The notes under the pieces are model-generated. The model was not told the DNA's origin. It saw nothing but the letters and a program-made list of their open reading frames with translations, and ran no database searches. Made by a program: the position numbers and the translations under genes. Below, in pieces: positions 3,968-64,000 of a stretch of DNA of 64,000 bases (positions are counted from its first letter, which is position 1; each line of letters begins with the position of its first letter). This DNA comes from Thermoplasmata archaeon (GTDB lineage: Archaea > Thermoplasmatota > E2 > DHVEG-1): positions 4,829 to 68,828 of the forward strand of contig JAHWGK010000006.1 in assembly GCA_020054495.1 (NCBI GenBank), given 5' to 3'.

Positions 3968-4222
3968 TTACAAACTCTTATAGAAGACTTGGGTGGACTT
4001 CCTTTTTTTATATAGTATATGAGCGTATTTTTTATGGAGCCGTTCATGTTCTTTAAGAGCGAATTCATATCCTATTTTATCTCCTCTTTCTTTTGCCTCT
4101 TTCATTTTTTTAGCAATTTTATTTATTTCCTCTAGAGCTTCTTCAATTGAGGGTTCAAACTCATTATTCATTTTGCCTATCCCGCCCAATCCATCACAAT
4201 TTTCAGAACATTCATGTATCAT
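3968..4222 (-). CDS. small helical hypothetical protein, translationally coupled to the upstream surface-protein gene
   Basis: 84-aa ORF. Its ATG overlaps the TGA of ORF 4219..5202 (ATGA, plus-strand tcat at 4219-4222). Charged, helix-prone sequence (EEALEEINKIAKKMKEAKERGDK). The internal start MNNEF (4171) is also possible. Confidence 0.4.
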   Translation of the reverse strand: MIHECSENCDGLGGIGKMNNEFEPSIEEALEEINKIAKKMKEAKERGDKIGYEFALKEHERLHKKYAHILYKKRKSTQVFYKSL

Positions 4223-5306: not shown

Positions 5307-8300
5307 TCAGTTTTCCTCAAACCATATTCTATAACCTGTTAAGTAAAGAACTAAAATAATTACAATAATTGCAATAACTATTCCAATTATCACAAGGCTC
5401 CACGGAAAATCGTCTGAGGACGCTTCTTCGCTATAAACTGTAATTTCACCACTTGCTGGATTGTATATATAATCCCATTTTGCATCCCCGTCCATATCAA
5501 TTAGATAATTGCCATCATCTGTTACATCCACAGTTGTTATTCTACCAACAGGATTGCAAAATTTATTAATTATACCATCCTTATCTGAATCTATCAAATA
5601 ATATTCTCTTCCTTCTATATCAACTACTATAACATCTGAATTATTATAAGGATCAGACCCCCATGTTTCTTCTAGATGATCAACAAGTCCATCATTATCA
5701 TCGTCTTCATCATACTCGTCTGGTAATCTATCTCCATCATTATCAATTGGACTGTCATTTGGATCTGACTTATTTGTATTAAACTCCACTTCTTCTAAAT
5801 CCGACCAGCCATCACCATCTGAGTCGAGTTCAATAGTTACTGCGGTTTTATTATTGTTTGACAGCCCAGCATTATCTATTACTTTAAGTGTTATATTGTA
5901 CAAACCTGGATTTACATATGTATAGGTTACTTGTTCACCGAAAAATATTGTTCCATCTCCAAGATTCCATGTATAATTGGTAATTGTTCCATCTGTATCA
6001 TAACTTCCTGATCCATCAAAGAATATATTTTCAAATGTTAATCCGAAGTATGGCCCCCCTGCATTTGCTACAGGTAAACCAGCAACAATTATGGTATTAA
6101 TAATAAAGAAGCATGTTTCATAATTACCAATATTTTCATTTGAACTTGCATCTCTTGCTTTCACATAAAATGTATGTGTACCATCTTCAATGGTACTAGT
6201 AGAGGTCCATGAAGTAACATTTCCAATCCAAATATCTGAACCATCATCTATTTTAACATAATAACCAGCGACACCACTTAAATCAGTTGCTGCGTCCCAG
6301 CTGAACGAGGGTGTATTATCAGTTTCTGGTGTTGTACATCCAACATTAGTTGGAGCAGTTGGAGCGGTTGTATCTCCTCCAGCCGGAGGAGGAGGATCAC
6401 CATTATCTGACTCTATATTTTTTACAGTTATATTAGTAGAATCTCCTGTATAACTATCTTTTGAAGTATATATCGGAAAGATAGTATCGGAGCTTACAGA
6501 TGGTGCAGTAAATGTTGTTTGTCCGTTTGAATTTGTTTGTTTAGTAACACTATTAAATGTCACATATGCACCTTGAACTAATGAGTTAAATTGAGTTTTA
6601 ACTGTTACAATAAAATTATTGCCTTCATCCACTGAAGAAACTGTATTAATTGATAATATGTAGTAATTCTCAAACTTATAAATTAACGGATATTTATCTT
6701 GATTACTACCGCCACTTATGTTATATTCTGAATCAACTATTCCATTGCTATTATTATCCCATGCTCCTTCTCCAGATTCGTCGAAATCATCCCAATAATT
6801 TCCGTTTAATAGAGTAATATTATACCAAGAATTATTTGAATCATCATATGCTTGTTGAGAATTATTGATAAAATTATTGTGATAAATAGTATTGTTAAAT
6901 CCATCTGATTCGTATACGCCCTTAGAGTTATTTTTTATAGTATTTTTATAAATATTGTTATAAGTTGAATCCTCAATAGATATACCTTGGAGATTATCTG
7001 TTATTGAGTTTCCAAATACTGTCGTATTTGCTGATGTACCAAAGATATATACCCCATCAGCAAAACTAAGATTATTCGATATAAGAGTATTATTAAAAAT
7101 ACTAGTTTTTTGTGAATCCTCAATCCATATGCAAGCTAAATCTGCATTCGTAATATTATTTTCAAAAATATTGGTATGAGTAGTCTCTAATATCCAAATT
7201 CCTATCCAAGAGTTATTTATTTTATTATAACTAATATTATTGTAACCGTAAGTTGTACCTCCTCCAGTATCAATTTCGATTCCATCGTCACAATCTTTGA
7301 TAAAGTTATGATGAATGTCTGAGTAATTTGACGAAACATAAATTGCTGCTAAAAGCATATCACTGTTTTGTAATGTAAATCTTGTTATTTCTACAGAGTC
7401 ATTATTGACTAGTAATATATAATCTTGATTTAATCCATCAATAATTGTGGAATTAATATCCTCTCCAATAAGCGATATTGATTTGTTAATATTAATATTA
7501 TATTCATTATATGTTCCATTAAAAACAAAAACTGTATCACTATTTGAAGAATTATTAATTCCATCCTTTATTGAATCAAAACAATATATTCCCCAACCTG
7601 GAGTGTTACTATTAAAGTCATCATTAACAAATATTTTTTGCACTGGACCTGGGTTAATTAGGGGATAATAATCAACATTACTTCCTCCTGATATGTTATA
7701 TTGTGAATCACCAATTCCCTCACCATTTAAATCTAATCCAGTGTAATTATCCCAATAATTTCCACCAATTGGATAACTCTTATTCCAATTGTTAGTTCCA
7801 GAATCATAACCATGTATGGTATTATTTATGAAATTATTATGATATATAGTATTATTTATTGAGTAGGAATTTTGATATACGCCATAAAAAGAATTATCTG
7901 AAATATTATTATTAAAAATGTTGTTGTATGATGAATCATAAAAGTATATTCCAATATAACTTCCTATGATATTGTTGTTAGATATATTATTATTAGATGA
8001 ATATGGTGAATCAATACCAGAAAACATATTGTTATTAATGGTGTTGTCAGTAACGTTCATGTCTGATGAATCCCATATACGTATGCCTCCATCATTGCAA
8101 TCACTAATATTATTTTCAAAAATGTTTGAAAAAGATGAATATCCAAAATCTACACCATAATAAGAGTGATTTGTGATAATATTATCTTTAACAGTATTAT
8201 TTTGAGAATAACCAATAATTATACCACCACCAAAATTATGGTATATAATATTGTCACTTATGTTGTTATTATTCAATTCTTCAAGCCAGAGGATGCCATA

Positions 8301-11300
8301 ATAGTTATTTACAACAATATTATCATAAATCTTATTATTATTTGAACTTACTTGTATGCCTGAATAATAATCAGTGGTAATGTTTTTGTTATGAGAGTCA
8401 CCCATTATTGACCAATTAACCGAGCTAAAAGCCATATCTCCAGCATTCATAATAGTAAATCCAGTTAAATTTACCCAATCAGAAGAAATGGTAACAACAG
8501 TTCCACTTTCATTTGAATCAATTATCGTTGAATTCTTATCCGCCCCCGTCAAATCAATTGTTTTGTCAATATTTATTTTTTCTTGGTAGGTTCCAGAATA
8601 GACAAAGATATCATCTCCTTCAAAAACCTCATCAATAGCATTTTGAATTGTTTGATAGGGATTGTTTTGTGTTCCAAGCCATGGACCTGCAATATTATCA
8701 TCATCAACATAAATAGTCCCATTTAATGAACCTGCCCAGGGATTTATTAGAGGATATCGGTCTTTACTATTATTTTGTCCTGAAATATTGTACGATGTAT
8801 CCCCTATTCCATCTACATTTAAATCCACACCTGAATAATTTTCCCACCAGTTACCACCACGTAAACGATATTCACTCAGATTGCCGTTATCCCAGGGATT
8901 ATTAGTGCCGTTATCAAAAGCATTAAGTGTATTATTGAAATTATTATGGTAAATAGAATTATTAGAACAATCTATGTTAACAATTATGCCAATATTATTG
9001 TTAAAAATTTCATTATCAGTTAATATGTTGTTATAAGATATATTGGTATAGCTGACTCCTAGAGAATGATTTGAAATATTAGTATCGGTTATTGTAATAT
9101 TTTCAGATGCATTTATACAAATACCTGTAACTGAGCTATTAAATATTGCACAATTTGTAATGGAAATATTCGACGAGGATTCCACATATAAACAAAAGGA
9201 TCCATTTCGTACTGTAAATTGTGTTATATTCACTGAGTTTCTATTTTGAATTTGTATCGTTCTTCCTGAAATCCCATTAGCATCAATAAATGTTGTATCT
9301 TTATTAATACCTGCTAAAGATATATTTTTATTGATACTCACATTTTCTGGATATATACCAGCTGGAACTAGTATATTATGGTCATCAAGTGTGTCAGTAT
9401 CATTTATTGATTCTTGAATTGTATCGAATAACTCATTCGTATCAATATTGAAAACGCCAACATTGACTGTTTGATTTCTTTCATTATCTGTATAGCTGTC
9501 TTCTGTAACGGCAGGACTGGATACATTCATACTAACATTATACGAACCTGCAGAAGGTGTCCAATTAAAACTTACCTGTTGAGAGGTTTGATTTGTAAAG
9601 GTTCCAATTGTAGTTGAGTTTTCTTCAGCGCCATTTATTCGAAAACTAACCAAGACATTCGTCTCATCGTTGTTGCCACTGTTATAAACAGTTGCATTTA
9701 CATGAATTGTTATATTGGATTTTACAGGATTTGTAGCATCTATATCTAAGGTTTGCACACCAACATTATGATCAAGTAACGTTGGAGGTTTAATTCGTTG
9801 TGCTGGATCTCCAAATAATAGACAACCTTGGATAATAGCCCGCCAGGTCCCATAAGAATAATCCCAGTTGATAGTTGGAGCCATCGTGTCCTTAGAAAAG
9901 GCCATGGCCTTTCCGAGTTGCCAATTGAAAGTACTTCCAGAGTTATTTGTTGTATCAAAAAAGTAGTCCCAGAAACATTTCTGTTGAAGTGAACTGCTTG
10001 AGTTTGTAGAATATAAGTTGCCCCATCCATAGCATGTGTTATAGACGCAGGCAAATGCTAGTTCAGTATCACTATGAAAAAGCATTGAGTGAAGCACACC
10101 ATCATCTGCAGCATCCATATCACCACTATGACACCCATAATCATGTAAAAAGAAAGGTTTTGTATTATGGTAGTCAGACTCCCAATTAGCATAATATACA
10201 TCTAAAGAATAATATTCATTCGCATGAGCAATGCCACTTAGAAGCGTAACATAATCATTGTTAATTGCATTTTTCAAACCAGCAATAGCTGCAGAATCTG
10301 AGCCACCTTGCCAACCAACATTAGGAGGTTCTGCAGTCCATTTAACAGAGAGGTTATATTCAACACCAGGATTTGTTGCATTCCAAGTTTCAAAACCATA
10401 TTGATAACCAAGCCAACTAGGATATGGACCATCACTATTAGGATCTGGGCCAAGCCAATTAGAGGTACCCTTAATCGCACTAAAATCAATGAAGTCATCC
10501 CCTTGACAAGACCATCCAGTATCACCACCATAAAAAGCTGCACTATCTAAATAGTCAGTAAATACAGAATCTGCATAATAGAAACTTTTATTCATCCAAT
10601 TTGAAACATCTTGCGGTGTATCACAAGTAATACGCCCGATATACATTTCAGCATATAAGTCAAAACCACTATCGCCTTCTTCTCCCCAATATGAATCGCC
10701 ATCCTCATTGAATGAATTGTCGAGATGATTCCAATAAATATCAGAATCAACATCAGATTCAAATACATATTTCATTTCTCTTGCTGGAATCCATTCGTCA
10801 TCCCCACCGATAAATATGTAACTGGCCCCCCAATCCTGATAAGCATCTTTACAAAATTCTCTTATATGTGCCGCTGTGTCATTGAATAGAGCAGTACCCT
10901 TCCAATAATCTGAACAATTATTGATATCTTGTATTGTAACTAGTGTACAATTTAAGCCGTCATCAGCCAAGTGCTTGTCCATTAAACTTGTCCAGTTATT
11001 TGGTGTAGTTGAGTTCGTTTCCCAATGATCAAGATTATTTTGTGTCGTCGTAATAATTACATAATCATAATCATCAATTGGACTGCATAGCCCACCAGAA
11101 TAATCTAAGATTGGAAAATTAGTAATTTCATATCTATCAATTATTTCTGGATTATTTACTAGGTTCGTCACCCATTCTTCATCTTCTTTGTTGTTTCGAT
11201 AAAACGAATTAAAAAATCCATTATCTTCAAGATCGATATTAACATTTAATTCAGGATAAAATGTTAATCTCCCTAAACCAGGAACATACTGTAAAGGATT

Positions 11301-11828
11301 AAGCCCCAAAGATAAAATGGTATAACCACGGCAATAACCTATATTATCTTCACCGAATAAATCAGACGGATAATTATCCATAGATCTATATCTCTCATAA
11401 TTAAACGCACATATGGTTGGTGGCGTACTACCTATAGGCAAAGGGTTTTGATATGGAACAATTGGTTTTTCAATGAGATCTATTTCAAGTGGAAAGATTT
11501 CTAAAGACAAACCATTCACTTCAATATTTTTCACAGATTTTGCAGGTGGCAACAAAATTTTGATAAATTTAACTGGCATTGCAGGCTCACCTACATCTTT
11601 ACCAAGCATTACACAACCTGGTAAGCTAATTGAAGTATATTGATTATCATAAACAATCATTTCATTAAAGCTTGGGGAATCAAACGAAAACGAGTAGCTT
11701 ATCCGCTCATAATCATCTACTTGCGTTTGAGCATAAGGTCTAACCTCATTGTCCTCAGAGATGACAGTGTTGAAACTAATAATTATACTAGCTATTGCCA
11801 TATAGGCAAAAATGGCTTTTAGTCCCAT
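5307..11828 (-). CDS. giant surface protein (2173 aa): C25/gingipain-like N-terminal region, three NosD/PbH1-type parallel beta-helix modules, Ig/Fn3/PKD-like domains, TSP3-like repeats, C-terminal TM anchor
   Basis: Signal peptide MGLKAIFAYMAIASIIISF. C25-propeptide-like GEPAMPV. Candidate His/Cys dyad (GIAHANEY, DYGCHSGD). Three modules each end in a GNYW..Y.G.D..GDGIGD..YNISGG...D.YPLI motif. PKD TWNLGDGT. DSDGDGWSD and DDDNDGLVD repeats. C-terminal DDFPWSLVIIGIVIAIIVIILVLYL..WFEEN. Confidence 0.85.
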   Translation of the reverse strand: MGLKAIFAYMAIASIIISFNTVISEDNEVRPYAQTQVDDYERISYSFSFDSPSFNEMIVYDNQYTSISLPGCVMLGKDVGEPAMPVKFIKILLPPAKSVKNIEVNGLSLEIFPLEIDLIEKPIVPYQNPLPIGSTPPTICAFNYERYRSMDNYPSDLFGEDNIGYCRGYTILSLGLNPLQYVPGLGRLTFYPELNVNIDLEDNGFFNSFYRNNKEDEEWVTNLVNNPEIIDRYEITNFPILDYSGGLCSPIDDYDYVIITTTQNNLDHWETNSTTPNNWTSLMDKHLADDGLNCTLVTIQDINNCSDYWKGTALFNDTAAHIREFCKDAYQDWGASYIFIGGDDEWIPAREMKYVFESDVDSDIYWNHLDNSFNEDGDSYWGEEGDSGFDLYAEMYIGRITCDTPQDVSNWMNKSFYYADSVFTDYLDSAAFYGGDTGWSCQGDDFIDFSAIKGTSNWLGPDPNSDGPYPSWLGYQYGFETWNATNPGVEYNLSVKWTAEPPNVGWQGGSDSAAIAGLKNAINNDYVTLLSGIAHANEYYSLDVYYANWESDYHNTKPFFLHDYGCHSGDMDAADDGVLHSMLFHSDTELAFACVYNTCYGWGNLYSTNSSSSLQQKCFWDYFFDTTNNSGSTFNWQLGKAMAFSKDTMAPTINWDYSYGTWRAIIQGCLLFGDPAQRIKPPTLLDHNVGVQTLDIDATNPVKSNITIHVNATVYNSGNNDETNVLVSFRINGAEENSTTIGTFTNQTSQQVSFNWTPSAGSYNVSMNVSSPAVTEDSYTDNERNQTVNVGVFNIDTNELFDTIQESINDTDTLDDHNILVPAGIYPENVSINKNISLAGINKDTTFIDANGISGRTIQIQNRNSVNITQFTVRNGSFCLYVESSSNISITNCAIFNSSVTGICINASENITITDTNISNHSLGVSYTNISYNNILTDNEIFNNNIGIIVNIDCSNNSIYHNNFNNTLNAFDNGTNNPWDNGNLSEYRLRGGNWWENYSGVDLNVDGIGDTSYNISGQNNSKDRYPLINPWAGSLNGTIYVDDDNIAGPWLGTQNNPYQTIQNAIDEVFEGDDIFVYSGTYQEKINIDKTIDLTGADKNSTIIDSNESGTVVTISSDWVNLTGFTIMNAGDMAFSSVNWSIMGDSHNKNITTDYYSGIQVSSNNNKIYDNIVVNNYYGILWLEELNNNNISDNIIYHNFGGGIIIGYSQNNTVKDNIITNHSYYGVDFGYSSFSNIFENNISDCNDGGIRIWDSSDMNVTDNTINNNMFSGIDSPYSSNNNISNNNIIGSYIGIYFYDSSYNNIFNNNISDNSFYGVYQNSYSINNTIYHNNFINNTIHGYDSGTNNWNKSYPIGGNYWDNYTGLDLNGEGIGDSQYNISGGSNVDYYPLINPGPVQKIFVNDDFNSNTPGWGIYCFDSIKDGINNSSNSDTVFVFNGTYNEYNININKSISLIGEDINSTIIDGLNQDYILLVNNDSVEITRFTLQNSDMLLAAIYVSSNYSDIHHNFIKDCDDGIEIDTGGGTTYGYNNISYNKINNSWIGIWILETTHTNIFENNITNADLACIWIEDSQKTSIFNNTLISNNLSFADGVYIFGTSANTTVFGNSITDNLQGISIEDSTYNNIYKNTIKNNSKGVYESDGFNNTIYHNNFINNSQQAYDDSNNSWYNITLLNGNYWDDFDESGEGAWDNNSNGIVDSEYNISGGSNQDKYPLIYKFENYYILSINTVSSVDEGNNFIVTVKTQFNSLVQGAYVTFNSVTKQTNSNGQTTFTAPSVSSDTIFPIYTSKDSYTGDSTNITVKNIESDNGDPPPPAGGDTTAPTAPTNVGCTTPETDNTPSFSWDAATDLSGVAGYYVKIDDGSDIWIGNVTSWTSTSTIEDGTHTFYVKARDASSNENIGNYETCFFIINTIIVAGLPVANAGGPYFGLTFENIFFDGSGSYDTDGTITNYTWNLGDGTIFFGEQVTYTYVNPGLYNITLKVIDNAGLSNNNKTAVTIELDSDGDGWSDLEEVEFNTNKSDPNDSPIDNDGDRLPDEYDEDDDNDGLVDHLEETWGSDPYNNSDVIVVDIEGREYYLIDSDKDGIINKFCNPVGRITTVDVTDDGNYLIDMDGDAKWDYIYNPASGEITVYSEEASSDDFPWSLVIIGIVIAIIVIILVLYLTGYRIWFEEN

Positions 11829-44227: not shown

Positions 44228-47200
44228 TTATTGTAGTCCTAATCGTAGTAGTAGACGTTGTAGAATTGGAAATAGATCAGGATAATTCTGTTGGAACCAT
44301 TGCAATAGCATTGTGGTTACCTTGTTTCTTGGCATAGTAACAGTAAGTGTTCCCTCGGTACCAATAAAACCATTGATGTCTTTTGCTTTAGCAGTAATTA
44401 TATAATCACCCCGTTCAGCCCATGTATGACTTGCAAATGCATCTTCTCCAGATGCAAAAGGACCTGCGATGATTTCTTCCCCAGTACCGTCACCCCAGTC
44501 TACAATATACTCTGCGATGTCATCATCATCAGGATCTATTGATTTAAAACTGTATTCATACTCTGTTCCAGCATCTCCATTATCTTCACCATCTATTATA
44601 GGTGCATTTGGCGGTTCATTACCAGGTTCAGGTTCTGTTGTGAACGTATAAACTTCTTCTGTTGTTTCGCCACTACCATCTGGATCTGTAGCACTCACAT
44701 ACCAAGTATATATGGTACTATAATCTAGACCAGAAATACTACATGTTTTTGTACCCTCACTTTCACCTGTACCACTATTGCTACCAACATCAGGACTGGT
44801 TGTAATACTCCAATCAAAGCTATTTTCCTCAGGGTCTGCTATATAAACAGATAACGAAGATGTAGTTATGGGTACACCAGTAGCACCGTCAAGTGGATCT
44901 TCATTTGAAAACACAGGTGGAAAATTCGGTGGCGCACTTTCTTTAGTGAAGAAATCCCACACAAGGCCAATAGTACTTTCACCGTATGGATCCCATGCGA
45001 CAATCTGCCACCAATAATGCGTGTTATACTCTAGCGGATTTGGTGGAGTATAACTGGTTTCTGATTGATTGTGTGATACTAAAACATCAGGGGTTTGATC
45101 ATTTGCTTCAAGATATACACAATACGTTACAGGATCACCATTTGGATCACTACAAGTCCAACTCAGGGTAGGAGTAACACCAACATTTGTTGCGCCATCG
45201 GGTGGATAGGGATTACTAGGGGGATAAGGTGGTAGGTTGTCCTCTGGGACTGTAGCTTCTCCCATATATGGGCAGAAATTATGTTTGGTGACAGTTACAT
45301 ACATGACACCCCCAGAAGACGGCACGGGATAAAACGTTACATCTCCAGCTGAATTTGTATAGCCTGTTAAATATACTTCATCCTCTTTTGATAAACAGAC
45401 ATATGCGCCATTGACATTGGTTCCTCCTGTAGTTTCAACATGAACTGTGAAAGATGAAGAGCTAACAGTATCAGGATGAGTTACATCAAGATTCTGTGGA
45501 GCTGCTGTCCATATCTCCATACTTGGATCCCCAAAAACATGGAACAACTCAAAGGTATACCTTTCATACCCCCAGGGATCACCCCATGTGTTTCCCATGT
45601 ATGTTTTACCGTTATTCAATATTTCTCCTAAGGTATAAAGCGGAATATCACCACCAATATCCTGATCAAAATCAGGCCAGATAGCATCATAAAAACCACG
45701 ACATAAAAAGTCGTTATACCCACTATAGCTTACTCGAGTTGCACCAAAAACAGCAACGGCACCTCCACCATCTTTTCTTATAAATTTTTCACAGAAACAC
45801 TCATAATTATCAAACTTACCAGTCAGACAATTAATGCTGAACACAACAGGAGTAAGATCACCATTTGTTAACCCCGCTATATGAGAAGATTGGAAATAAG
45901 GATCACCCCAGCCACCTTCAGACCCATGATCCCGATGATTCAAGATAAACACTCCTGACTCTATTGCGTTGATAATATCATCAGCATCACCATCCCAAGC
46001 AAACGTTGGACGAAGAAGCTCAGGCGGTAAAGGCTCTCCATTACCATAATAACCATTATTATAATGAGTAGGATAAACACTTGGTTCTGTAACATAAATA
46101 CGTTCTCCATCATAACCCTCTGATAACAGATAATCCCTGACTTCCTCAGAGGTTCTCACAAACCTCCTAGTTTCATATCCATTATGCTCATCATCCTGGA
46201 AATATGCTGCTACCGCAAAATCTTCATAATAACTAGTAGCAGTAGGAGGAGCCTGCTCATATTTTAGTATTTTTTCAACAATTACTTCAGCTTCTTGAGA
46301 CGTATCAGCAGGTATTCTTCCAATAAAAAGATCAGGGTAATAATCAGATCCACTAACAGTAGCATACCACAAATCTGATGCAGCAGAATAAACATAATTA
46401 GTTGGCACATATTCAGCATCACCAACAAGTAGAACATACGATGGTTTCAGATCCCATGTATCATATGCATTTTGAATATATTGACGTATCTGTGAAGAAG
46501 TACTTCCTGCTTCAATAGTGTCAACAACTTTAGTAAATAATCCTTTAGAGTGCTTCCAATCTGCCAGCTCAAGAATCTCCATATAAAAATCAGGATGAGT
46601 AATAATTAAATAATCACATCCCTCCTCCCGTGATCCACTACCTGAACCTTGTGAGGATTCATCAAATATGGTATTTTCCAAAAACTCTTGCCAATTCTCA
46701 AATACGTTTTCATAAAACCGGGTAAACAATACATTATCAAAACCTGATTCCACAGCCACTTTTTCACCCTCATCCCAAGATAGCTCTATAACGATTTCAT
46801 CATAAATAGTTGCAATTTCTTGTTTTGGATTACATTGAACCGGGTAAAACTCAATTTTCACAAAACAAATATCACGAATCTTACCATCATACACCAATTC
46901 AACTAGCTTTCCAGGATACTCGATATCCTGCTGGTAAAACGATTCATCAATTATAAACTCAGTATTATCACCCGTTTCACTATCAGACTGAGGACTCTGA
47001 GCAGGATACACCCGGCCAACCCAACTAGACTCCATAACTTCAGCATCAACAACATTCAAAGATACATCCAATGTAGGAACAGCAAAAATACAAGTCACAA
47101 CAGGCAACTGTGGTTTACCCAAGTCACCGATAAAACCGGCATTAGGGATATTAAACGTGGTAAAGGTACCATGCTCGGTCACATCTTGATCTTGTATTAG

Positions 47201-47389
47201 CTCCTGCAATTTAAAAGAAATAAGTAGCTCATGATCACTTACATAATTATAAGAAACCATCGTGTCATTTTCTAATCTAGTTTCATTCAACCCTACCGTA
47301 TTTATTGAACTTGGCAACAAAAATAATACGACAATACCCAGCGTCACAACCATTTTTAAAACTATTTTCCTATCTCTATATATTTTCAT
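44228..47389 (-). CDS. secreted C25 (gingipain-like) cysteine peptidase with Fn3-like and PKD domains and a conserved C-terminal FPILQRLLLRLGL tail
   Basis: 1053 aa with a signal peptide, propeptide-like GKPQLPV, catalytic-type HRDHGSEGGW (His) and SINCLTGKF (Cys), two Fn3-like units, PKD YIVDWGDGTG, and the tail ..TMPRNK-x16-FPILQRLLLRLGLQ*. Confidence 0.88.
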   Translation of the reverse strand: MKIYRDRKIVLKMVVTLGIVVLFLLPSSINTVGLNETRLENDTMVSYNYVSDHELLISFKLQELIQDQDVTEHGTFTTFNIPNAGFIGDLGKPQLPVVTCIFAVPTLDVSLNVVDAEVMESSWVGRVYPAQSPQSDSETGDNTEFIIDESFYQQDIEYPGKLVELVYDGKIRDICFVKIEFYPVQCNPKQEIATIYDEIVIELSWDEGEKVAVESGFDNVLFTRFYENVFENWQEFLENTIFDESSQGSGSGSREEGCDYLIITHPDFYMEILELADWKHSKGLFTKVVDTIEAGSTSSQIRQYIQNAYDTWDLKPSYVLLVGDAEYVPTNYVYSAASDLWYATVSGSDYYPDLFIGRIPADTSQEAEVIVEKILKYEQAPPTATSYYEDFAVAAYFQDDEHNGYETRRFVRTSEEVRDYLLSEGYDGERIYVTEPSVYPTHYNNGYYGNGEPLPPELLRPTFAWDGDADDIINAIESGVFILNHRDHGSEGGWGDPYFQSSHIAGLTNGDLTPVVFSINCLTGKFDNYECFCEKFIRKDGGGAVAVFGATRVSYSGYNDFLCRGFYDAIWPDFDQDIGGDIPLYTLGEILNNGKTYMGNTWGDPWGYERYTFELFHVFGDPSMEIWTAAPQNLDVTHPDTVSSSSFTVHVETTGGTNVNGAYVCLSKEDEVYLTGYTNSAGDVTFYPVPSSGGVMYVTVTKHNFCPYMGEATVPEDNLPPYPPSNPYPPDGATNVGVTPTLSWTCSDPNGDPVTYCVYLEANDQTPDVLVSHNQSETSYTPPNPLEYNTHYWWQIVAWDPYGESTIGLVWDFFTKESAPPNFPPVFSNEDPLDGATGVPITTSSLSVYIADPEENSFDWSITTSPDVGSNSGTGESEGTKTCSISGLDYSTIYTWYVSATDPDGSGETTEEVYTFTTEPEPGNEPPNAPIIDGEDNGDAGTEYEYSFKSIDPDDDDIAEYIVDWGDGTGEEIIAGPFASGEDAFASHTWAERGDYIITAKAKDINGFIGTEGTLTVTMPRNKVTTMLLQWFQQNYPDLFPILQRLLLRLGLQ

Positions 47390-47587
47390 ATTTTTTACCC
47401 CCCGGTAATAAATATATATTTGTAATATATTATTTTAATTAAAAACTTTCTAATAATAAATTATCTAATCTTTATTTTTTATATGCAACAAGTTGTTAAG
47501 AAAAAAAAAGGTTTTTTTACATTTCAACTCCTATTAATTAAAAAGAAAATGAATTTGGACATATTGGCCCAAGGTGGTAAAATTTTT

Positions 47588-48157
47588 TTAGCGACGTTTA
47601 AAATTAAAAAAATATCTCCACTTTTCATTTTTTTCTATAGGAAAATCCCAGACAGATTTTTTAATTGTGCAGTATTCCTCTGGCTTTATTTCTTGATTTC
47701 CTGTTTCATCAAATTTAAAAGTAAGATAAAAAAGAGCACCAAGATTATTTCTTTTTACTTGCATGTTCCCAGTTTTATATCCAACAGGAACTCGTCTTCT
47801 TGTTATAATTGTTTTATTCCAACGTTGCTTTTTTGTCTCAACAATTTTATAACATGTGCTATTCTTAATTTTATTTGGACGTTTTTTTGAGAATACAGCA
47901 ATTTTCTGTATTTTATGCTGATGAGAGGTCCCAAACCTATTTATTATTTTTTTGCTACTCCATTTTACAATAGTAATGATACATTTTAAGAGTTTTATTG
48001 TAAAATCTATTATCTTTCTTGCAGAGAATTTAGGTATAGAGCGGATTTTTTCAGAAATATCTTTTTTTTTCTTTACTTCTTTTTTTGCATCATCCTTTGG
48101 CTTCTGTTCTATTGTTTTTCCAAAGTTTTGCAGATCTGAAAATTCATCACTTGACAA
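47588..48157 (-). CDS. hypothetical basic protein (189 aa), orphan
   Basis: TTG start with GGAG about 11 nt upstream. Lys/Arg-rich, no recognisable family. The overlapping plus-strand ORF 47483..47890 looks like AT-rich noise. Confidence 0.45.
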   Translation of the reverse strand: MSSDEFSDLQNFGKTIEQKPKDDAKKEVKKKKDISEKIRSIPKFSARKIIDFTIKLLKCIITIVKWSSKKIINRFGTSHQHKIQKIAVFSKKRPNKIKNSTCYKIVETKKQRWNKTIITRRRVPVGYKTGNMQVKRNNLGALFYLTFKFDETGNQEIKPEEYCTIKKSVWDFPIEKNEKWRYFFNFKRR

Positions 48158-48212
48158 AAAACATCTCCTTTTTTATCAAATATTCAAATTAATTTAAGAT
48201 AATTGCTAGTAA

Positions 48213-48311
48213 TTATTCAGTTTCATATTGCTTTAAAGTTCCGTCTTCCTCTTCTTCAAATAATGGTATCTGTTTTGGTATAGTATAATAAAATTTGTTA
48301 TGATTGTCCAT
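48213..48311 (-). CDS. hypothetical 32-aa acidic mini-protein
   Basis: MDNHNKFYYTIPKQIPLFEEEEDGTLKQYETE*. Strong SD (GAGGAGGGTAAAGATG). Confidence 0.35.
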   Translation of the reverse strand: MDNHNKFYYTIPKQIPLFEEEEDGTLKQYETE

Positions 48312-48590
48312 CTTTACCCTCCTCAGTCCTATAACAAACATGTGTTTAAAAAACTATACTATTTTTTCATAAAAAATATTAAAATTGCAGTTAACAAATA
48401 ATATTTATAGATACAGGAAGTTATTATTTCTATTACCAAATCTTTTCTAAATAAATGATCGTTCAAAGTTTTTTATTTGAATGTATCTGTAATAATAATA
48501 ATTTTCAACAATTTATTAATAAAAAAAAATCCTCATTTTTTAACATTCTGATTGTAATTAATTAAAAAGAAAAAAAGAGATGGACTATTT

Positions 48591-49736
48591 TTATAGTCCT
48601 AAACGCAGTAGCAGTCGTTGTAGTATCGGGAATAGATTGAGATAGTTCTCAAGGAAGTCTAAGAATGGTGTATTGATAGCTTTGTTTCTTGGTGTTGTCA
48701 TTGATACATCTATTGTACAGAAATCTCCAGGATTATCTTTATTTTCGATTGTTATTATTCCGGCGTAATCGTTTTTTTCTTCCGGTGCAATAACAGTTAC
48801 TTGTACTGTGACTGGAGAGCCTGGTTCTAAATCATCTCCTTGCTCTGGATTAAATGTCCATGTTCCCCAACTTGGTTCGTCTGTGATTTGCCAGCCAAGC
48901 AATCCGCCACCTGCGTTCTTAACAGTAAAACTACCTTCTAATGTTGCACCTGCAGTTACATTGCCAAAATGAAGATCGCCTTCACATAACAAGTCAGGAT
49001 CTAATTCAAAATCAACACCAGTAACAGTGAAATCATCTAAAAAGAACGCAAAATGATCCCATGAAACAACGTGGATCCCAATATATATATCTTGTCCAAT
49101 ATAATCAGTAAGACTATAAGTATACTCAGTCCAATCTGTTGGAACTTCAATAATTCCACCAGAAACAATTGTAAAACTCGATGGATCTGTGTCCGTAGTT
49201 GAAATACCATACTCTATTTCTTCTAAACCATATGCATCATTAAGTGATCTTGCCCAGAACGAAAGCATTCCATCTTCTATCATCGTTAATTGAGGGCTAA
49301 ACAGCCAATCATCATTTGGTGGTGTTATTGAATCCCAACATGATGCATATTTTTCTCCAGTATGCGGAGGATGACTAGTAAATGGTGGAGTCGTTAAAGA
49401 TGGATTAAATATCATAAACGCACCTGCATATCCTGCATTAGGCCAATCAACTCCTTCAACACCCCAGGTATCTGAGCCATCACCATCTAAGGTAGTCCAT
49501 GGTGGAAAGTTATCAACAACAAAGTCTGGATAGTTTTCAAAACTATCTGAAAAAACTCCTTTGGTTATTAACGGGGTATTACTTGATTCCTGAATTTTTA
49601 ATTCAACATTTTCATAAGATTTCATCGTTTTTTTTACAGCATTAGTATTTGCTGTCGCAGATACCGCTGTAAGAATCAGTATCGTAGTAATCAGCAAAAC
49701 AACAGCTTCTTTTCCTATTTTTCTCGTATTTTTCAT
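48591..49736 (-). CDS. secreted cleaved-adhesin / choice-of-anchor-J-like domain protein with the same C-terminal FPILQRLLLRLGL tail
   Basis: 381 aa with signal peptide MKNTRKIGKEAVVLLITTILILTAVSATA. FENYP..WTTLDGDGSDTWG..PPNDDWLFSP..FWARS resembles the gingipain/hemagglutinin cleaved-adhesin domain. Ig-like domain, then tail ..TPRNK-x16-FPILQRLLLRLGL*. Confidence 0.75.
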   Translation of the reverse strand: MKNTRKIGKEAVVLLITTILILTAVSATANTNAVKKTMKSYENVELKIQESSNTPLITKGVFSDSFENYPDFVVDNFPPWTTLDGDGSDTWGVEGVDWPNAGYAGAFMIFNPSLTTPPFTSHPPHTGEKYASCWDSITPPNDDWLFSPQLTMIEDGMLSFWARSLNDAYGLEEIEYGISTTDTDPSSFTIVSGGIIEVPTDWTEYTYSLTDYIGQDIYIGIHVVSWDHFAFFLDDFTVTGVDFELDPDLLCEGDLHFGNVTAGATLEGSFTVKNAGGGLLGWQITDEPSWGTWTFNPEQGDDLEPGSPVTVQVTVIAPEEKNDYAGIITIENKDNPGDFCTIDVSMTTPRNKAINTPFLDFLENYLNLFPILQRLLLRLGL

Positions 49737-53671: not shown

Positions 53672-54198
53672 ATGTGTATCATTGCTTCGTCTTCACCACA
53701 AAAAGGGCACGAATAGACACACATGTCCTTATATAAATCAGCACCTTCAGCCCAAACGGTAATACCTTCTCCACAAACATTGCATTTGAAATTTGCTTTG
53801 ATAGATTTTTTTTCAGGAATTTCTTCTTCTACGCATGTAGGATTAGGAGAGATAACACCTATTGCACCGCAATCAGGACATGTCATCCTAACATATTTCT
53901 TATTATTACGTTTAGATTTTTTAATGGCAAAAATACCGCTGCAGGTTTGACATTTGAAATGATATAAACCACCTTTTAATGTTTTTTCAAATTCATCTAC
54001 GGTAATTGCTGAAACTTCATCTTTTTTATATCTTAAAAAGACTAAAAAAATAGTAATTATGATAAGCACTGCATAAGAGGCTAACATTATTGTCATCCAA
54101 CCTCTGTCAGTCGTTATATCATATATTGAGAAAATCATTACAAATAATCCTAGTAAGGTTATTATAACCAATAGCCCCGAACCCCTAATCAAATTCAT
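53668..54198 (-). CDS. membrane-anchored double zinc-ribbon protein
   Basis: 176 aa with two N-terminal TM helices, then CQTC..CPDC and CNVC..CPFC pairs. ATGA overlap with the upstream CARDB giant gene. Confidence 0.5.
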   Translation of the reverse strand: MNLIRGSGLLVIITLLGLFVMIFSIYDITTDRGWMTIMLASYAVLIIITIFLVFLRYKKDEVSAITVDEFEKTLKGGLYHFKCQTCSGIFAIKKSKRNNKKYVRMTCPDCGAIGVISPNPTCVEEEIPEKKSIKANFKCNVCGEGITVWAEGADLYKDMCVYSCPFCGEDEAMIHI

Positions 54199-57100
54199 TT
54201 AGATTTTCTCCTTTTAACAAAAAGTATTAAGATTATTAGAAAAATGAACAAGGCAATAGAACCTATTAGGTACCAGGCGTTATCTTCTAATCTATAAATA
54301 GCATTTTCAAAGATAATATCTTTTGTTGGATTATTACCAGCTGCATATTCTTTAAGATTTGTTAAACCATCTTTATCCTCATCGTCTTGTGCATCCATTG
54401 GATTCTCTGGGTCTAAACCATATTTTTCTTCCCACCAATCAGGCATTCCATCATCATCTCTATCGTCAATATCTGATGTTATCCAGAAATATTCTGAATC
54501 TGTCTCAACCCAGTTTCCAGCTTTATCTTTTACAAGTATAGTAAAATAATACCTTCCAGTTATATTATATATATCATCATATACATATTTGCCGCTTGGG
54601 AACCAGTTCATTGTTCTTTCAAAAGATAATCCATCCGGAGGAGTAATAAAAACTTTAGCAGTATTTATTCCAATATTATCTGTCGCTATACAAGTAATGG
54701 TAACATCATTATTTATTAATTGAACATGCGGTCGAACTTCAAAGTATGATATGACTGGAGGTATTGAATCTTTTTTTATGTAAAAAATATCCTTTGCAGT
54801 AACATTATTACTATGGATTGATAGATCCACGGCTTTGATTTGGAATGTGTAAGTTCCTACTAAAAGCGTATTGTCAAAAGTGAACTTGAATAAATCTCCA
54901 GTTGTTCTTACCATCGTTTCATCAGGATATGAAAAATTTGAAGGATTTGTAATTCTAATTGTTACAGATTCAAGGCCTGAATCATCAGTTACCTTAGCAG
55001 TTATAGTTACAGATCCACCTTGTTCCTGTCTACGGGGCATAACATTAATACTATCTATTACTGGTTTAATTCTCTCAAGCCCTTTAACTTTTAGGGTTTG
55101 ATTAGAGAGAAATATATTGTTTGCTCGATAAGTATCCCATTTAGAAACAGTAACTACAACATATGCTCCAACAAACCATTCACCAGGTATAGCCGAATCC
55201 CATATAATAGGAATTTTTTTACTTTCATTAATTTTAATACTAAAAGTTGCATTGTCAATTTCGTTTTCATATTTCATAACTCCTTCTTCAACTTTTTCAA
55301 GATAAAGATTTACTACGTAATCAACTGCATCTCCTTTCCCAATATTTGCAATAACAATATCAAATTTTAATTCTTCAAATTCAGTTATTGTTCCTGTTGG
55401 TAAAATAATATTTCTAATAACTAAATCAGGCCATCGATAAACAATAAATTCTTTTTTCTTTTGATTATTGGTTTCATTTTTTTCTTCTATCAAATCATCA
55501 GGATCTACTGTTATTGTTACATTGAAAATACCAGAATCATTTGCCTTCCATTTATTAAAACTGACAGTGTTTTCTTTATCTTTATAAATAGTTTTTACAA
55601 CAGTATCATTATAAATTATATTATTTGTATTATTAAATATCTTAATTGTTACATTAGCATTTAGAACAGTTGCTTCATAAGCAACCAGATATGCTGTAAA
55701 ATTTACTGTATCGTCAATATAAATCTTGGGATAAGTTGCTGGATTATTTGTTGAAATAGAAATATTAACTATTTCAATATCTGGTAGCCCAACATAAATC
55801 TTATGCTCTTTTAAAACTGGTTCATATCCAGCCCCATCGATACTTGTGATTCTAATAACCCAGTTTCCGGTCTCATTTAACTCAAGGTTATCATATTCCC
55901 ATGAAATATTATCCTGAATATTAATCAAAGAACGAGTGAAATTAATACTTACATTATTTTGCATAAAAACAAATGCTTCAACATATTTTGCCTTTGAAGA
56001 GGTATTTACTTTTATGTATATCGATTGATTAAGAAGTGTGTAACTACCATTAATTGGCTCTGCAAAATCAATCCACCATCCATCCAGAGCTGTATAATCA
56101 CCAACATATGCGTCACCAGAGATATTGATATCTTCGGTTTCATTAAGTTCAGTTCTTTCACCAGTGTTATTTGTTACATCGAAATAGATACAATAAAATT
56201 TTTCTTTTGATGAACCTGTCACATTCCATATTAAAGTTCCAGTTGCATTATTAATGGAATCAAATGTAATGCTTTCATTAAATTTGTATTGTTGCGATAC
56301 ATTAACAATATCTCCGTCATATGAGTATTCAACAATTCTTAATGTGTCATTTTCAAAGGTTTGAGAAAACACTTCAAGTTCTTCTAAGAATTGTGTGAAA
56401 TTTAAAAATCCAGGAACATTTCCAGTTCCATTAACCGTTAAAAAATATCTGTAATGCCAGTTTTTATCCCACCATTTAAGATGCTCAACTCCAATAGATA
56501 TCGTTCTCTCCTCATAATCATGGGTTTCTCCTTCATAAATAATGTTAAAAGTTATTTTTTCACTTCCAAAATGCGAAGGAGTCCAATTGAAATAAAAGGT
56601 ATGTGTTGCATTTCTTGCAAGACTATTTTGTCTCGTATCATTTTGGATTTGACCATCAATGCTTGAATTTAATTGTGCAATGATTGTATCTGTTGTTTTA
56701 CCACCATAATTCTTTATTTTTACAGCAATCATTGACGTAGTATTTATAACAAAGCTATCTGGAAGGCCAATATCAATTATTTCTAAACTAGGACCTTTTT
56801 CATTAACATAGATATGTCCAGTCTGGTAATTATTATTCCAATTGCTATCACCAAGTAAAGGGCAGGCAACTTCTATTAAAACAGATCTTTGAGTTTCGGT
56901 TCCTAACTCTGCAGTCCAACTAATATTCATATATTTTGTTTCTCCAACATTTAGACCATCTGAGTTACTTATGCTTTCTTCTTCTAAATCATCTATAAAT
57001 AGTGTTACAATTATTGGTGTACCCTCTGAAATATTAAGAAATTCCCCAGTTTCTACATTTACTATATTTTTTATCCTAACAGTAAATTCGACATCATTTC

Positions 57101-57257
57101 CTTCATTAACATTTGTTGGAAAATTAAAATAATCGATTGACAGGTCAGGTGAAGCTTTATCGGCAGAAACAGAACCATTGAGATTATTTAATAGAAAAAT
57201 TATTAAAATTGTTAGAATAATAAATCTTTTAGTAATACTATTATCAACTCTTGACAT
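54195..57257 (-). CDS. large surface protein (1020 aa) with multiple CARDB/Ig-like domains, TSP3-like Asp repeat and C-terminal TM plus basic tail
   Basis: Signal peptide. Repeated CARDB-type units (DLSIDYFNFP..EGNDVEFTVRIKN, PDLVIRNIILP..). DIDDRDDDGMPDWWE..DEDKDGLTN. C-terminal AWYLIGSIALFIFLIILILFVKRRKSK*. Confidence 0.8.
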   Translation of the reverse strand: MSRVDNSITKRFIILTILIIFLLNNLNGSVSADKASPDLSIDYFNFPTNVNEGNDVEFTVRIKNIVNVETGEFLNISEGTPIIVTLFIDDLEEESISNSDGLNVGETKYMNISWTAELGTETQRSVLIEVACPLLGDSNWNNNYQTGHIYVNEKGPSLEIIDIGLPDSFVINTTSMIAVKIKNYGGKTTDTIIAQLNSSIDGQIQNDTRQNSLARNATHTFYFNWTPSHFGSEKITFNIIYEGETHDYEERTISIGVEHLKWWDKNWHYRYFLTVNGTGNVPGFLNFTQFLEELEVFSQTFENDTLRIVEYSYDGDIVNVSQQYKFNESITFDSINNATGTLIWNVTGSSKEKFYCIYFDVTNNTGERTELNETEDINISGDAYVGDYTALDGWWIDFAEPINGSYTLLNQSIYIKVNTSSKAKYVEAFVFMQNNVSINFTRSLINIQDNISWEYDNLELNETGNWVIRITSIDGAGYEPVLKEHKIYVGLPDIEIVNISISTNNPATYPKIYIDDTVNFTAYLVAYEATVLNANVTIKIFNNTNNIIYNDTVVKTIYKDKENTVSFNKWKANDSGIFNVTITVDPDDLIEEKNETNNQKKKEFIVYRWPDLVIRNIILPTGTITEFEELKFDIVIANIGKGDAVDYVVNLYLEKVEEGVMKYENEIDNATFSIKINESKKIPIIWDSAIPGEWFVGAYVVVTVSKWDTYRANNIFLSNQTLKVKGLERIKPVIDSINVMPRRQEQGGSVTITAKVTDDSGLESVTIRITNPSNFSYPDETMVRTTGDLFKFTFDNTLLVGTYTFQIKAVDLSIHSNNVTAKDIFYIKKDSIPPVISYFEVRPHVQLINNDVTITCIATDNIGINTAKVFITPPDGLSFERTMNWFPSGKYVYDDIYNITGRYYFTILVKDKAGNWVETDSEYFWITSDIDDRDDDGMPDWWEEKYGLDPENPMDAQDDEDKDGLTNLKEYAAGNNPTKDIIFENAIYRLEDNAWYLIGSIALFIFLIILILFVKRRKSK

Positions 57258-62968: not shown

Positions 62969-63439
62969 ATGTTTTTAGATTATAAGCCTCCTAAAGAACT
63001 TAGAGCACTATTTATTGTTCACTATGCGCCACTAATTTTAATTATATTAATAGGGCCATTGACAGCATTATTTGATGTCTGGAAACTACCTATAAATATG
63101 ATTTTTAGTATCATCCTAGGATCTGTTATTTTTCTACTTGGTGCTTTTGTATATTTTAAATGGGAATTATTCTGGTATAAAGCATATAAAGGCCAACTTG
63201 TAACTGGAGGGATTTTTCAACATATTAGACATCCACATTATACTTCGCTTCTTATCGTTGGATTTGGGCTTTCATTATTTTTTTGGTCGTTAGCAGCGTT
63301 ACTCATTGCAATTATTGCAATACCAATAATGATATGGAGTATATTTGATGAAGAAAAACTCCTGATAAAACAATATGGTAAAGAATACGTTGAATATATG
63401 AAAAAGGTACCTTGGCGAATAATTCCAAAGATTTTTTAA
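62969..63439 (+). CDS. isoprenylcysteine carboxyl methyltransferase / phospholipid methyltransferase family membrane protein
   Basis: 156 aa, 4-5 TM, with GIFQHIRHPHYTS and the distal EEKLL..YG..Y..Y motif. Confidence 0.65.
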   Translation: MFLDYKPPKELRALFIVHYAPLILIILIGPLTALFDVWKLPINMIFSIILGSVIFLLGAFVYFKWELFWYKAYKGQLVTGGIFQHIRHPHYTSLLIVGFGLSLFFWSLAALLIAIIAIPIMIWSIFDEEKLLIKQYGKEYVEYMKKVPWRIIPKIF

Positions 63440-63568: not shown

Positions 63569-64000
63569 CTAGATGCTCAATAGTATATTTAGTATTTGAT
63601 CAAGTACTGGAAATCGTTCCATGAATGCCTCGAGAAGTGCAATGACTAAGTTGAATTGTTTGGCTTTTGGCATACTAATGTATAGTATTCCCCATGGACC
63701 TTCTGCATCATTCACATCTTTTGCCTTCACTTTTACTGTATAGACACCATTTGAAGACCAAGTATGACTTGCAGATGATCCCTCGCCTGAACTATATGGA
63801 CCATCCCAATCTTCAAATGTGTCATCTCCCCAGTCTACATAGTAGTATATATCGTCTCCATTAGGATCAGTTGCAGAAAATGTAATGGTATATTGTGTTC
63901 CTGGTTTTCCACTGGTTGGCCCGTCAACCTCTGGTGCATATGGTTGCTGGTTGTTTGATTCTTCTATCGTCGAGTCAACTGGAACTGGTGCAGACCATTC
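63569..64000 (-). CDS. 3' part of a secreted PKD-domain protein carrying a variant of the conserved C-terminal tail (N-terminus beyond the window)
   Basis: Not in the ORF track because it is truncated. The reverse frame is open from 64000 to TAG 63569-63571: ..PYAPEVDGPTSGKPGTQYTITFSATDPNGDDIYYYVDWGDDTFEDWDGPYSSGEGSSASHTWSSNGVYTVKVKAKDVNDAEGPWGILYISMPKAKQFNLVIALLEAFMERFPVLDQILNILLSI*. Confidence 0.75.
   Translation of the reverse strand, partial: EWSAPVPVDSTIEESNNQQPYAPEVDGPTSGKPGTQYTITFSATDPNGDDIYYYVDWGDDTFEDWDGPYSSGEGSSASHTWSSNGVYTVKVKAKDVNDAEGPWGILYISMPKAKQFNLVIALLEAFMERFPVLDQILNILLSI

Follow-up and report, generated by a model that had tools for sequence, protein, structure and literature searches.

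The sequence analysed here is a 64,000-nucleotide stretch (the window) of a Thermoplasmata archaeon (GenBank assembly GCA_020054495.1, contig JAHWGK010000006.1, positions 4,829 to 68,828 of the forward strand), in which two neighbouring genes for secreted proteins end in closely similar C-terminal tails. One, on the minus strand at 44228..47389, encodes a secreted C25 (gingipain-family) peptidase of 1053 amino acids, the open reading frame (ORF) closing with ..TVTMPRNKVTTMLLQWFQQNYPDLFPILQRLLLRLGLQ (also written ..MPRNKVTTMLLQWFQQNYPDLFPILQRLLLRLGLQ); the other, on the same strand at 48591..49736, encodes a secreted protein of 381 residues that ends ..DVSMTTPRNKAINTPFLDFLENYLNLFPILQRLLLRLGL (also written ..TPRNKAINTPFLDFLENYLNLFPILQRLLLRLGL). 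The peptidase is laid out as signal peptide, C25 propeptide, catalytic domain, Ig-like domains, PKD domain and tail, with Pfam matches to Peptidase_C25 (1.7e-74), Propeptide_C25 (1.4e-18) and PKD_4 (2.4e-08) as well as C25 Ig-like and Big_5. The smaller protein consists of a signal peptide, a choice-of-anchor J (cleaved-adhesin-like) domain (choice_anch_J, 3.3e-15), a choice-of-anchor D Ig-like domain (choice_anch_D, 6.1e-06) and the tail, and the labels "C25 protease" and "cleaved-adhesin-like" given to the two products in the initial annotation of this DNA hold in the light of these matches. Three homologues of the 381-residue protein carry a precomputed match to PF07675, which we take to be the Cleaved_Adhesin domain, and its closest relative (96% identity) comes from a Joint Genome Institute (JGI) metagenome. 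Both proteins have N-termini resembling Sec signals, in agreement with the first reading: in the peptidase the signal region (MKIYRDRKIVLKMVVTLGIVVLFLLPSSIN..) lies approximately at 47300..47389 (minus strand) by a hydrophobic-segment heuristic, and in the 381-residue protein (MKNTRKIGKEAVVLLITTILILTAVSATAN..) approximately at 49647..49736 (minus strand), where an AlphaFold2 (AF2) model has a helix at residues 6-26 followed by a low-confidence linker.

The tail of the peptidase (copy 1) has 35 residues, MPRNK-VTTMLLQWFQQNYPDL-FPILQRLLLRLGLQ (44231..44335, minus strand; E=1.4e-13 against the tail profile described below), and begins exactly where the last passenger domain, the Pfam-defined PKD domain (residues 924-1018; 44336..44620, minus strand), ends. 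That of the 381-residue protein (copy 2) has 34 residues, TPRNK-AINTPFLDFLENYLNL-FPILQRLLLRLGL (48594..48695, minus strand; E=1.9e-15), and AINTPFLDFLENYLNLFPILQR is an example of a peptide running across linker and tail. As first reported, with the same coordinates and sequences, the two ORFs share the C-terminal 13 residues FPILQRLLLRLGL as an identical core (44234..44272 in copy 1 and 48594..48632 in copy 2, minus strand), preceded in both by P-R-N-K and a 16-residue spacer, the spacers being unlike at most positions. A recount of the core codons again gave differences at 7 of the 13, one silent change each (ttt/ttc, cca/ccg, att/ata, cgt/cga, cta/ctg twice and cga/cgt), and not a single replacement. 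Because one third of the possible single-base changes in this stretch are synonymous, the probability that all seven changes would be silent is ~4.6e-4. Elsewhere, identical ERFPNAFPILR cores occur within single genomes in 5-8 DNA versions, CGN/AGR arginine switches included, and selection therefore acts on the peptide and not on the DNA. The location of the two genes on the same strand and only ~1.2 kb apart might suggest that the likeness is due to chance, or that one gene was recently duplicated or converted by the other. However, all seven differences are silent, the spacers have diverged and hundreds of protein clusters, drawn from many genomes, contain the tail, and we consider this explanation, against which the initial annotation had also argued, to be negligible.

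A six-frame motif scan revealed a third tail-bearing gene in the window, absent from the earlier list. Its 3' part, with a PKD-like "DWGDD" domain, occupies 63569..64000 on the minus strand, the ORF continuing past the window end, and terminates in ..ISMPKAKQFNLVIALLEAFMERFPVLDQILNILLSI (also written ..MPKAKQFNLVIALLEAFMERFPVLDQILNILLSI). The 34-residue tail (copy 3), MPKAK-QFNLVIALLEAFME-RFPVLDQILNILLSI (63572..63673, minus strand; tail-profile E=9.2e-11), is divergent and belongs to an RFPVL subclass. Convergent with this gene lies one for a membrane methyltransferase of the PEMT/ICMT family (62969..63439, plus strand), which was considered as a partner of the tail and rejected, as a homologue is found near a tail gene in one other locus only (L013) and the tail is without Cys; the two genes probably adjoin by coincidence. 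The 1.2 kb that separate the first two tail genes (47390..48590) contain only low-quality Lys-rich ORFs (e.g. 47588..48157, 189 amino acids), for which there is neither a Pfam match nor a homologue in related loci.

The consensus of 296 distinct tails, [MT]P[KR]N[KR][AP][FI]N-x-[LP][FL]-x-[WRQ][FL][LF]E[RN][FH]PN[ALM]FPILR-x-[LIM]L-(QRL)-GL, reveals a fixed order of elements, most tails being 30-36 residues long. A Pro-containing and usually basic linker, [MT]-P-[KR]-N-[KR], leads into an aromatic-rich amphipathic helix (..[FL][LF]E[RN][FH]), which is followed by a proline turn, P-N-x-F-P, and a second amphipathic helix, I-L-R-x-L-L-G-L, that forms the end of the protein. Conservation is highest at F22 (99%), P23 (97%), L25 (95%), P2 (94%) and P19 (90%), with E16 and R26 at 81 and 80%, respectively. 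The core of the window pair, ..FPILQRLLLRLGL, is a variant with the optional three-residue insert, and in several lineages S-Y-E-P-P-H-F stands in place of the P-[KR]-N-[KR] linker while the rest of the tail is kept. The tails finish in LGL, GLQ, LLG or LEL, with no C-terminal basic cluster; the terminal segment has 2-5 charged residues in 93% of them and contains conserved prolines. The AF2 model of the 381-residue protein, calculated from a 50-sequence alignment (mean predicted local distance difference test score, pLDDT, of 82.9), places the linker at residues 347-355 and helices at 356-363 and 365-377 with a kink at F-P, at a pLDDT of 58-75 for the tail against block means of 84-97 for both passenger domains.

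To establish the distribution of the tail, a tail-only profile of 34 positions, made from 34 aligned tails, was searched against 1.84 billion protein cluster representatives (50% identity). It matched 768 representatives at E<=1e-3, the top match having 55 bits (E=6e-10), and in nearly all of the best 150 of the 768 the match ends within 3 residues of the C-terminus. Of the homologues of the 381-residue protein, about half carry the same kind of tail (e.g. TP[KR]N[KR]..ERFPNAFPILRH[IL]LGL* and ..LERLIQRFPVLELIFSHLLG*) and others end in a hydrophobic stretch. In a census of one genome per species (GTDB), which covered a single subclass (ERFPNAFPILR; WLFERFPN / AFPILR..G), 156 sites were confirmed, almost all in Thermoplasmatota or Thermoplasmatales metagenome-assembled genomes, including three closed chromosomes and the MBG-D (for Marine Benthic Group D) genome SG8-52-3; the tail is also present on a protein of the MBG-D single-cell genome SCGC AB-540-F20. 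Exceptions are rare and comprise a "Parvarchaeota" record of 2.7 kb, a pair of "Methanobacteriota" records of 2.1 and 14.5 kb, and UBA33; the very short ones may be binning or labelling artefacts, and outside the census one "Helarchaeota"-labelled protein is found among the tail-bearing homologues. No tail was found on IMG/VR viral contigs. We also assembled a set of 79 related loci which, with the window, amounts to 1.12 Mb; since these loci were retrieved via the tail itself, the copies counted in each genome are minimum numbers and the gene neighbourhoods form a biased sample. Within this set 112 ORFs match the tail profile and 103 of the 112 matches stop 0-3 residues before the stop codon, single genomes contributing at least 30, at least 17 and at least 11 distinct tail proteins. 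The genes are often in tandem, with 16 same-strand pairs less than 600 bp apart.

The proteins that carry the tail are diverse. On 85 full-length carriers we found 60 Pfam families, among them PKD, PQQ/Kelch/FG-GAP propellers, NosD/beta-helix, the C25 and C1 peptidases and arylsulfotransferase-like domains, and the homologues include subtilisin (P0093) and sortilin-type carriers. The possibility, named at the outset as grounds for refutation, that the motif might occur only in the window paralogues is dispelled by this range of passengers and by the 768 representatives. Enrichment of export signals, which the initial annotation had proposed as a check, is apparent: by a crude heuristic, and against a background itself rich in membrane proteins, a hydrophobic segment resembling a signal is present at the N-terminus of 89% of carriers but of 44% of the remaining ORFs in these loci. 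The domain before the tail is of two unrelated kinds, PKD-like and Ig-like, and the junction reads either ..KAKD..G.ESDW..LEVTMP-KNK or ..VN..D..D.C.IDVSL.TP-KNK; the linker therefore belongs to the tail and not to the passenger. A role as an encapsulin or microcompartment targeting peptide was rejected, the carriers having signal peptides and extracellular-type domains.

The physical properties of the tail were then compared with those of membrane anchors. A hydrophobicity typical of a transmembrane (TM) helix, taken as a Kyte-Doolittle mean of 1.6 for the best 19-residue segment within the last 28 residues, is reached by none of 293 tails (average 0.60, maximum 1.50); values of 0.32-0.82 for the window tails bear out the earlier statement that they are not TM helices, and true C-terminal TM anchors on three other surface proteins of the window score 3.0-3.6. 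Both helices have hydrophobic moments of 0.45-0.50, and the last 26 residues, which include 4.8 aromatic residues on average, have a mean Wimley-White interfacial free energy of -2.8 kcal/mol, compared with +5.1 kcal/mol for 26-mers from other C-termini and +4.2 kcal/mol for internal segments of the same proteins. By calculation, then, the tail has the features of an in-plane amphipathic anchor, in that it is predicted to be helical, amphipathic, favourable for interfacial partitioning and not membrane-spanning. Taken together, the data show that the tail is conserved and under purifying selection, strictly C-terminal, helical and non-TM.

No catalogued signal accounts for this sequence. In Pfam and NCBIfam searches at E<=10 nothing covers the conserved core in the three window tails or the 34 aligned tails, and the possibility left by the initial annotation that the tail matches a described sorting domain is not borne out; all that appears are two unrelated matches without significance (RecG_wedge, E=0.21, at residues 7-30 of the 45-residue end of the C25 protein, and pepcterm_ChnLen, E=0.097, for one aligned tail). 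As a positive control, the same kind of search detects GG_III-CTERM on another protein of the window (54195..57257). No relative of the tail was found in the PDB, where the best matches (E=1.5-2.4) are at chance level, its core-motif strings were not found in the searchable literature, and a published account of Thermoprofundales and another of protein-degrading sediment archaea make no mention of a C-terminal anchor or positioning of the enzymes.

Comparison with known systems is nevertheless instructive. The signals of PGF-CTERM/archaeosortase A and the PEP-, PEF- and VPXXXP-CTERM types resemble the tail in being short, strictly C-terminal and modular, in their presence on diverse Sec-exported proteins, and in occurring in many copies per genome within restricted lineages. 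Archaeosortase/exosortase-type signals, however, have three parts, a motif followed by a hydrophobic TM helix and then by a basic cluster (PMC6098224). In the tail the TM helix is lacking (0/293), the end is L-G-L and not a basic cluster, and none of the hidden Markov models (HMMs) of these signals matches. We know of no cognate enzyme for it. The C-terminal domain (CTD) of the Bacteroidota type IX secretion system (T9SS), which operates with the C25-family sortase PorU, is likewise found on gingipain-type C25 peptidases and on cleaved-adhesin-like/choice-of-anchor J passengers. It is a beta-sandwich of ~80 residues that directs transport across the outer membrane, and to our knowledge archaea of this lineage have neither an outer membrane nor a T9SS; unlike this domain, the tail has ~34 residues, is predicted to be helical and does not match PF18962 or TIGR04183, models for which a domain of ~70-100 residues would be expected. 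The glycosylphosphatidylinositol (GPI) signal recognized by the GPI8 transamidase shares with the tail a linker, a spacer, a terminal hydrophobic stretch and the lack of a cytoplasmic tail, and GPI8 and the C25 peptidases both belong to clan CD, whose members are abundant in these genomes. It differs in that the tail has its 2-5 charged residues in the terminal segment and its conserved prolines, and evidence of cleavage or of a transamidase was not found. Dockerin, which binds cohesin, is also a small helical C-terminal module placing many enzymes on a surface scaffold, whereas the tail is half its length and has no F-hand calcium repeats, no Asp-rich loop and no Pfam match at E<=10. An archaeal precedent for surface-tethered proteases is that of Staphylothermus marinus, bound non-covalently to the tetrabrachion stalk. 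The closest match to the mechanism that we propose is provided by the in-plane C-terminal amphipathic-helix anchors of Escherichia coli PBP5 and PBP6 and of the pestivirus glycoprotein Erns (PMC4536213), in which, as proposed for the tail, a non-spanning helix keeps an exported enzyme at the membrane's outer face. Each of those anchors is one helix, poorly conserved in sequence and limited to a single family, whereas the tail, shared by hundreds of unrelated proteins, is conserved and has two helices joined by a proline turn. The tail is a new, uncatalogued C-terminal tag that would belong to the general kind of surface-localisation signals, and its architecture, without TM helix or beta-sandwich, is unlike that of the named ones.

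Proteins homologous to the passengers often end differently. The window encodes a second, giant C25 peptidase of 2173 residues (5307..11828, minus strand), with CARDB, six NosD/beta-helix stretches, PKD and a C-terminal TM helix; this protein and its 327-residue neighbour (4219..5202, minus strand) both end in "FPW" followed by a TM helix and an acidic end (..DDFPWSLVIIGIV.. and ..ESFPWLYVILGIV..), an anchor motif with no significant NCBIfam match. The window genome thus shows the use of alternative anchors, TM segment or tail, on C25 paralogues. A CARDB surface protein of 1020 residues (54195..57257, minus strand) ends in a TM region and KRRKSK and is the one that scores with GG_III-CTERM (22.3 bits, cut-off 22). 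On bacterial homologues of the 381-residue protein the place of the tail is taken by PF18962, presumably a T9SS C-terminal domain. The name "choice-of-anchor" in NCBIfam reflects the occurrence of these domains with alternative anchors, and the tail is interchangeable with TM anchors and, going by PF18962, with T9SS anchors on homologous passengers.

Further endings were seen among homologues and in the related loci. Other paralogues, including C25 peptidases, finish in a beta-strand-like module, ..GFGxxxIxVxV....G..LLFFVIGVA* or ..ILFFIVSIKPGGG* (P0035-P0064; L030:10624-13230, L046:1308-4100 and L053:16822-18471), which no NCBIfam model matches and which may be another C-terminal module. Many short C25 paralogues (450-660 residues) have a signal peptide and end just after the catalytic domain (..GDPSLKIGGY*) without tail or anchor; they are found at L004:12517-15311 and in L012, L015, L024, L042, L049 and other loci, often beside tail genes. 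A set of NosD-like beta-helix proteins has a different conserved end, ..NYWxxPRxxPK..PWxQFDWxPAxEPYDIGV* (L018:14898-16394, L022:976-2472, L052:10221-12097, L059:4671-6026 and L056:3060-6244). Each of these genes is followed, 4-9 bp downstream, by one for an unannotated membrane protein of ~200 residues with the motif SPLFxVRxxRAIxEESKD and a Cys-rich C-terminal TM segment, and in some loci a protein of ~290 residues with the signal end APSINANVSK and several C-terminal TM segments lies beside them. Judging from gene order, the FDWxPAxEPYDI genes and the membrane proteins would form a recurrent cassette separate from the tail system. The ~200-residue family (12 copies) and the ~290-residue family (6 copies, 5 genomes) were set aside as partners of the tail, as they adjoin the FDWxPAxEPYDI genes, and both are absent from the window.

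Situated at the extreme C-terminus, present in many copies, attached to unrelated exported passengers and interchangeable with other anchors, the tail has what is expected of a generic C-terminal tag, and it is most probably a modular tag for localisation or retention that would determine where the exported protein ends up. The initial suggestion of an unnamed tag for sorting or attachment is supported to this extent, its function being deduced from the pattern of occurrence, while the accompanying suggestion of processing at the basic motif is weakened by the replacement of the linker in some lineages. As the best overall explanation, with a probability of roughly 0.45, we propose a lineage-specific tag of Sec-exported surface proteins in Thermoplasmatota of the MBG-D/Thermoprofundales type that acts by hairpin anchoring. 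Following export of the passenger and removal of the signal peptide, the two tail helices would form a hairpin which, too polar to span the membrane, would partition into its outer interface with the help of the basic linker, the linker and the aromatic residues lying at the lipid headgroup region. Peptidases, adhesin-like proteins, propellers and beta-helix proteins would in this way be tethered non-covalently to the cell surface, and the hairpin would have the same role as the C-terminal TM helix on sister proteins of the same genome. We favour an interfacial mechanism because the physical numbers favour interfacial partitioning and because no partner was found, but as a statement of mechanism it is tentative and several observations weigh against it. 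The interfacial free energy of window copy 3 is near zero (+0.49), mean hydrophobicity and moment place the tail only at the border of Eisenberg's "surface-seeking" region, and residue conservation is above that usual for purely lipid-binding helices, which speaks rather for a protein partner or for a defined mini-fold; the envelope of these uncultured archaea may also offer a receptor, such as an S-layer.

Such a partner is central to the view of the tail as a docking peptide, in which the hairpin binds an envelope protein (S-layer, stalk or membrane-anchored scaffold), or other tails, and thereby assembles many enzymes on the surface, in the manner of a minimal calcium-independent dockerin or of the Staphylothermus protease on its stalk. 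Residue conservation as strong as this, maintained across lineages and across hundreds of passengers that are unrelated, is a mark of protein recognition more often than of lipid binding, the 16 close same-strand pairs show how often tail genes are adjacent, and the moderate pLDDT of the modelled tail would suggest that it does not pack on its own passenger. Some tail-rich loci of two closed genomes also encode membrane-anchored proteins in which a Cohesin domain is combined with two PKD domains and a TM helix forms the C-terminus (L018:1464-2741, L018:4323-5546, L020:4250-5164 and L039:1-852), which are possible scaffold proteins, although cohesin genes lie near tail genes in only 2 of ~20 genomes. 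The tail, however, lacks the calcium-binding repeats of dockerins and any Pfam dockerin match, and clustering of the 913 genes in the 1.12 Mb of loci gave no conserved candidate receptor or enzyme beside tail genes across genomes. We regard docking as less likely than interfacial anchoring, although the unusually high residue conservation keeps it a serious alternative.

The same clustering bears on the proposal that the tail is a cleaved sorting signal, removed by an enzyme (e.g. at or near [KR]-N-[KR]) that transfers the protein to a lipid or glycan, which would make it the archaeal counterpart of the T9SS CTD with PorU or of the GPI signal with GPI8; an attractive speculation is that the enzyme is one of the many C25 (clan CD) paralogues. 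Its genomic signature is that of known sorting signals, strictly C-terminal, in many copies, on diverse exported passengers and in a restricted lineage; gingipains cut after Arg or Lys, which would fit the linker. Around the tail genes there are 29 C25 genes in 1.12 Mb, most of them without a tail, but this abundance is equally explained by gene islands for protein degradation, and the weak score of C25 proteins against the PorU sortase model (1.2e-30) is far under the cut-off (105.9 vs 420 bits) and explained by shared homology of the C25 catalytic domain. In addition, S-Y-E-P-P-H-F replaces the basic linker in several lineages, no candidate enzyme co-varies with the tail in the loci examined, and the tail lacks the TM helix present in every sortase-, exosortase-, archaeosortase- and rhombosortase-type signal (PMC6098224). 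Cleavage in general is somewhat less likely than docking, although the same high conservation keeps it in contention, and the specific version in which a clan-CD (C25-type) paralogue or other dedicated enzyme recognizes the hairpin, cleaves near the linker and attaches the passenger covalently to lipid or glycan is improbable; were it true, it would add to PorU and GPI8 a third, independent case in which a clan-CD protease serves as C-terminal transpeptidase, and the tail would be the first sorting signal of its class without a transmembrane helix. The tail might instead have no part in localisation: it could cap the last beta-sandwich domain, act as its propeptide or help it to fold and stay stable, or it could be a peptide with an autoinhibitory or regulatory role. 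A beta-sandwich domain precedes it in every case, joined to it by the conserved [MT]-P junction, and some secreted proteases use C-terminal propeptides. Against this, the domains in front of the tail are of two unrelated types, its carriers range from enzymes to propellers and adhesin-like proteins, there are many paralogues that fold without a tail and have TM or other ends, and AF2 confidence is lower for the tail than for the passenger domains. We think a role of this kind very improbable.

Understood as a hairpin anchor of surface proteins, the tail would add a helical type without a TM segment to the catalogue of prokaryotic C-terminal localisation signals. Its HMM offers a simple sequence marker for the surface proteome of an uncultured lineage, and the tail itself is a short candidate module for archaeal surface display. 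MBG-D/Thermoprofundales rank with the most widespread archaea of marine sediments, and the degradation of buried protein is attributed to their extracellular peptidases of the C25, C1 and S8 families (PMC6461988, PMC6752024, PMC9123169). That dozens of exoenzymes in a genome share one tag implies that they remain on the cell and are not released, in which case the return on extracellular hydrolysis would have to be modelled differently.

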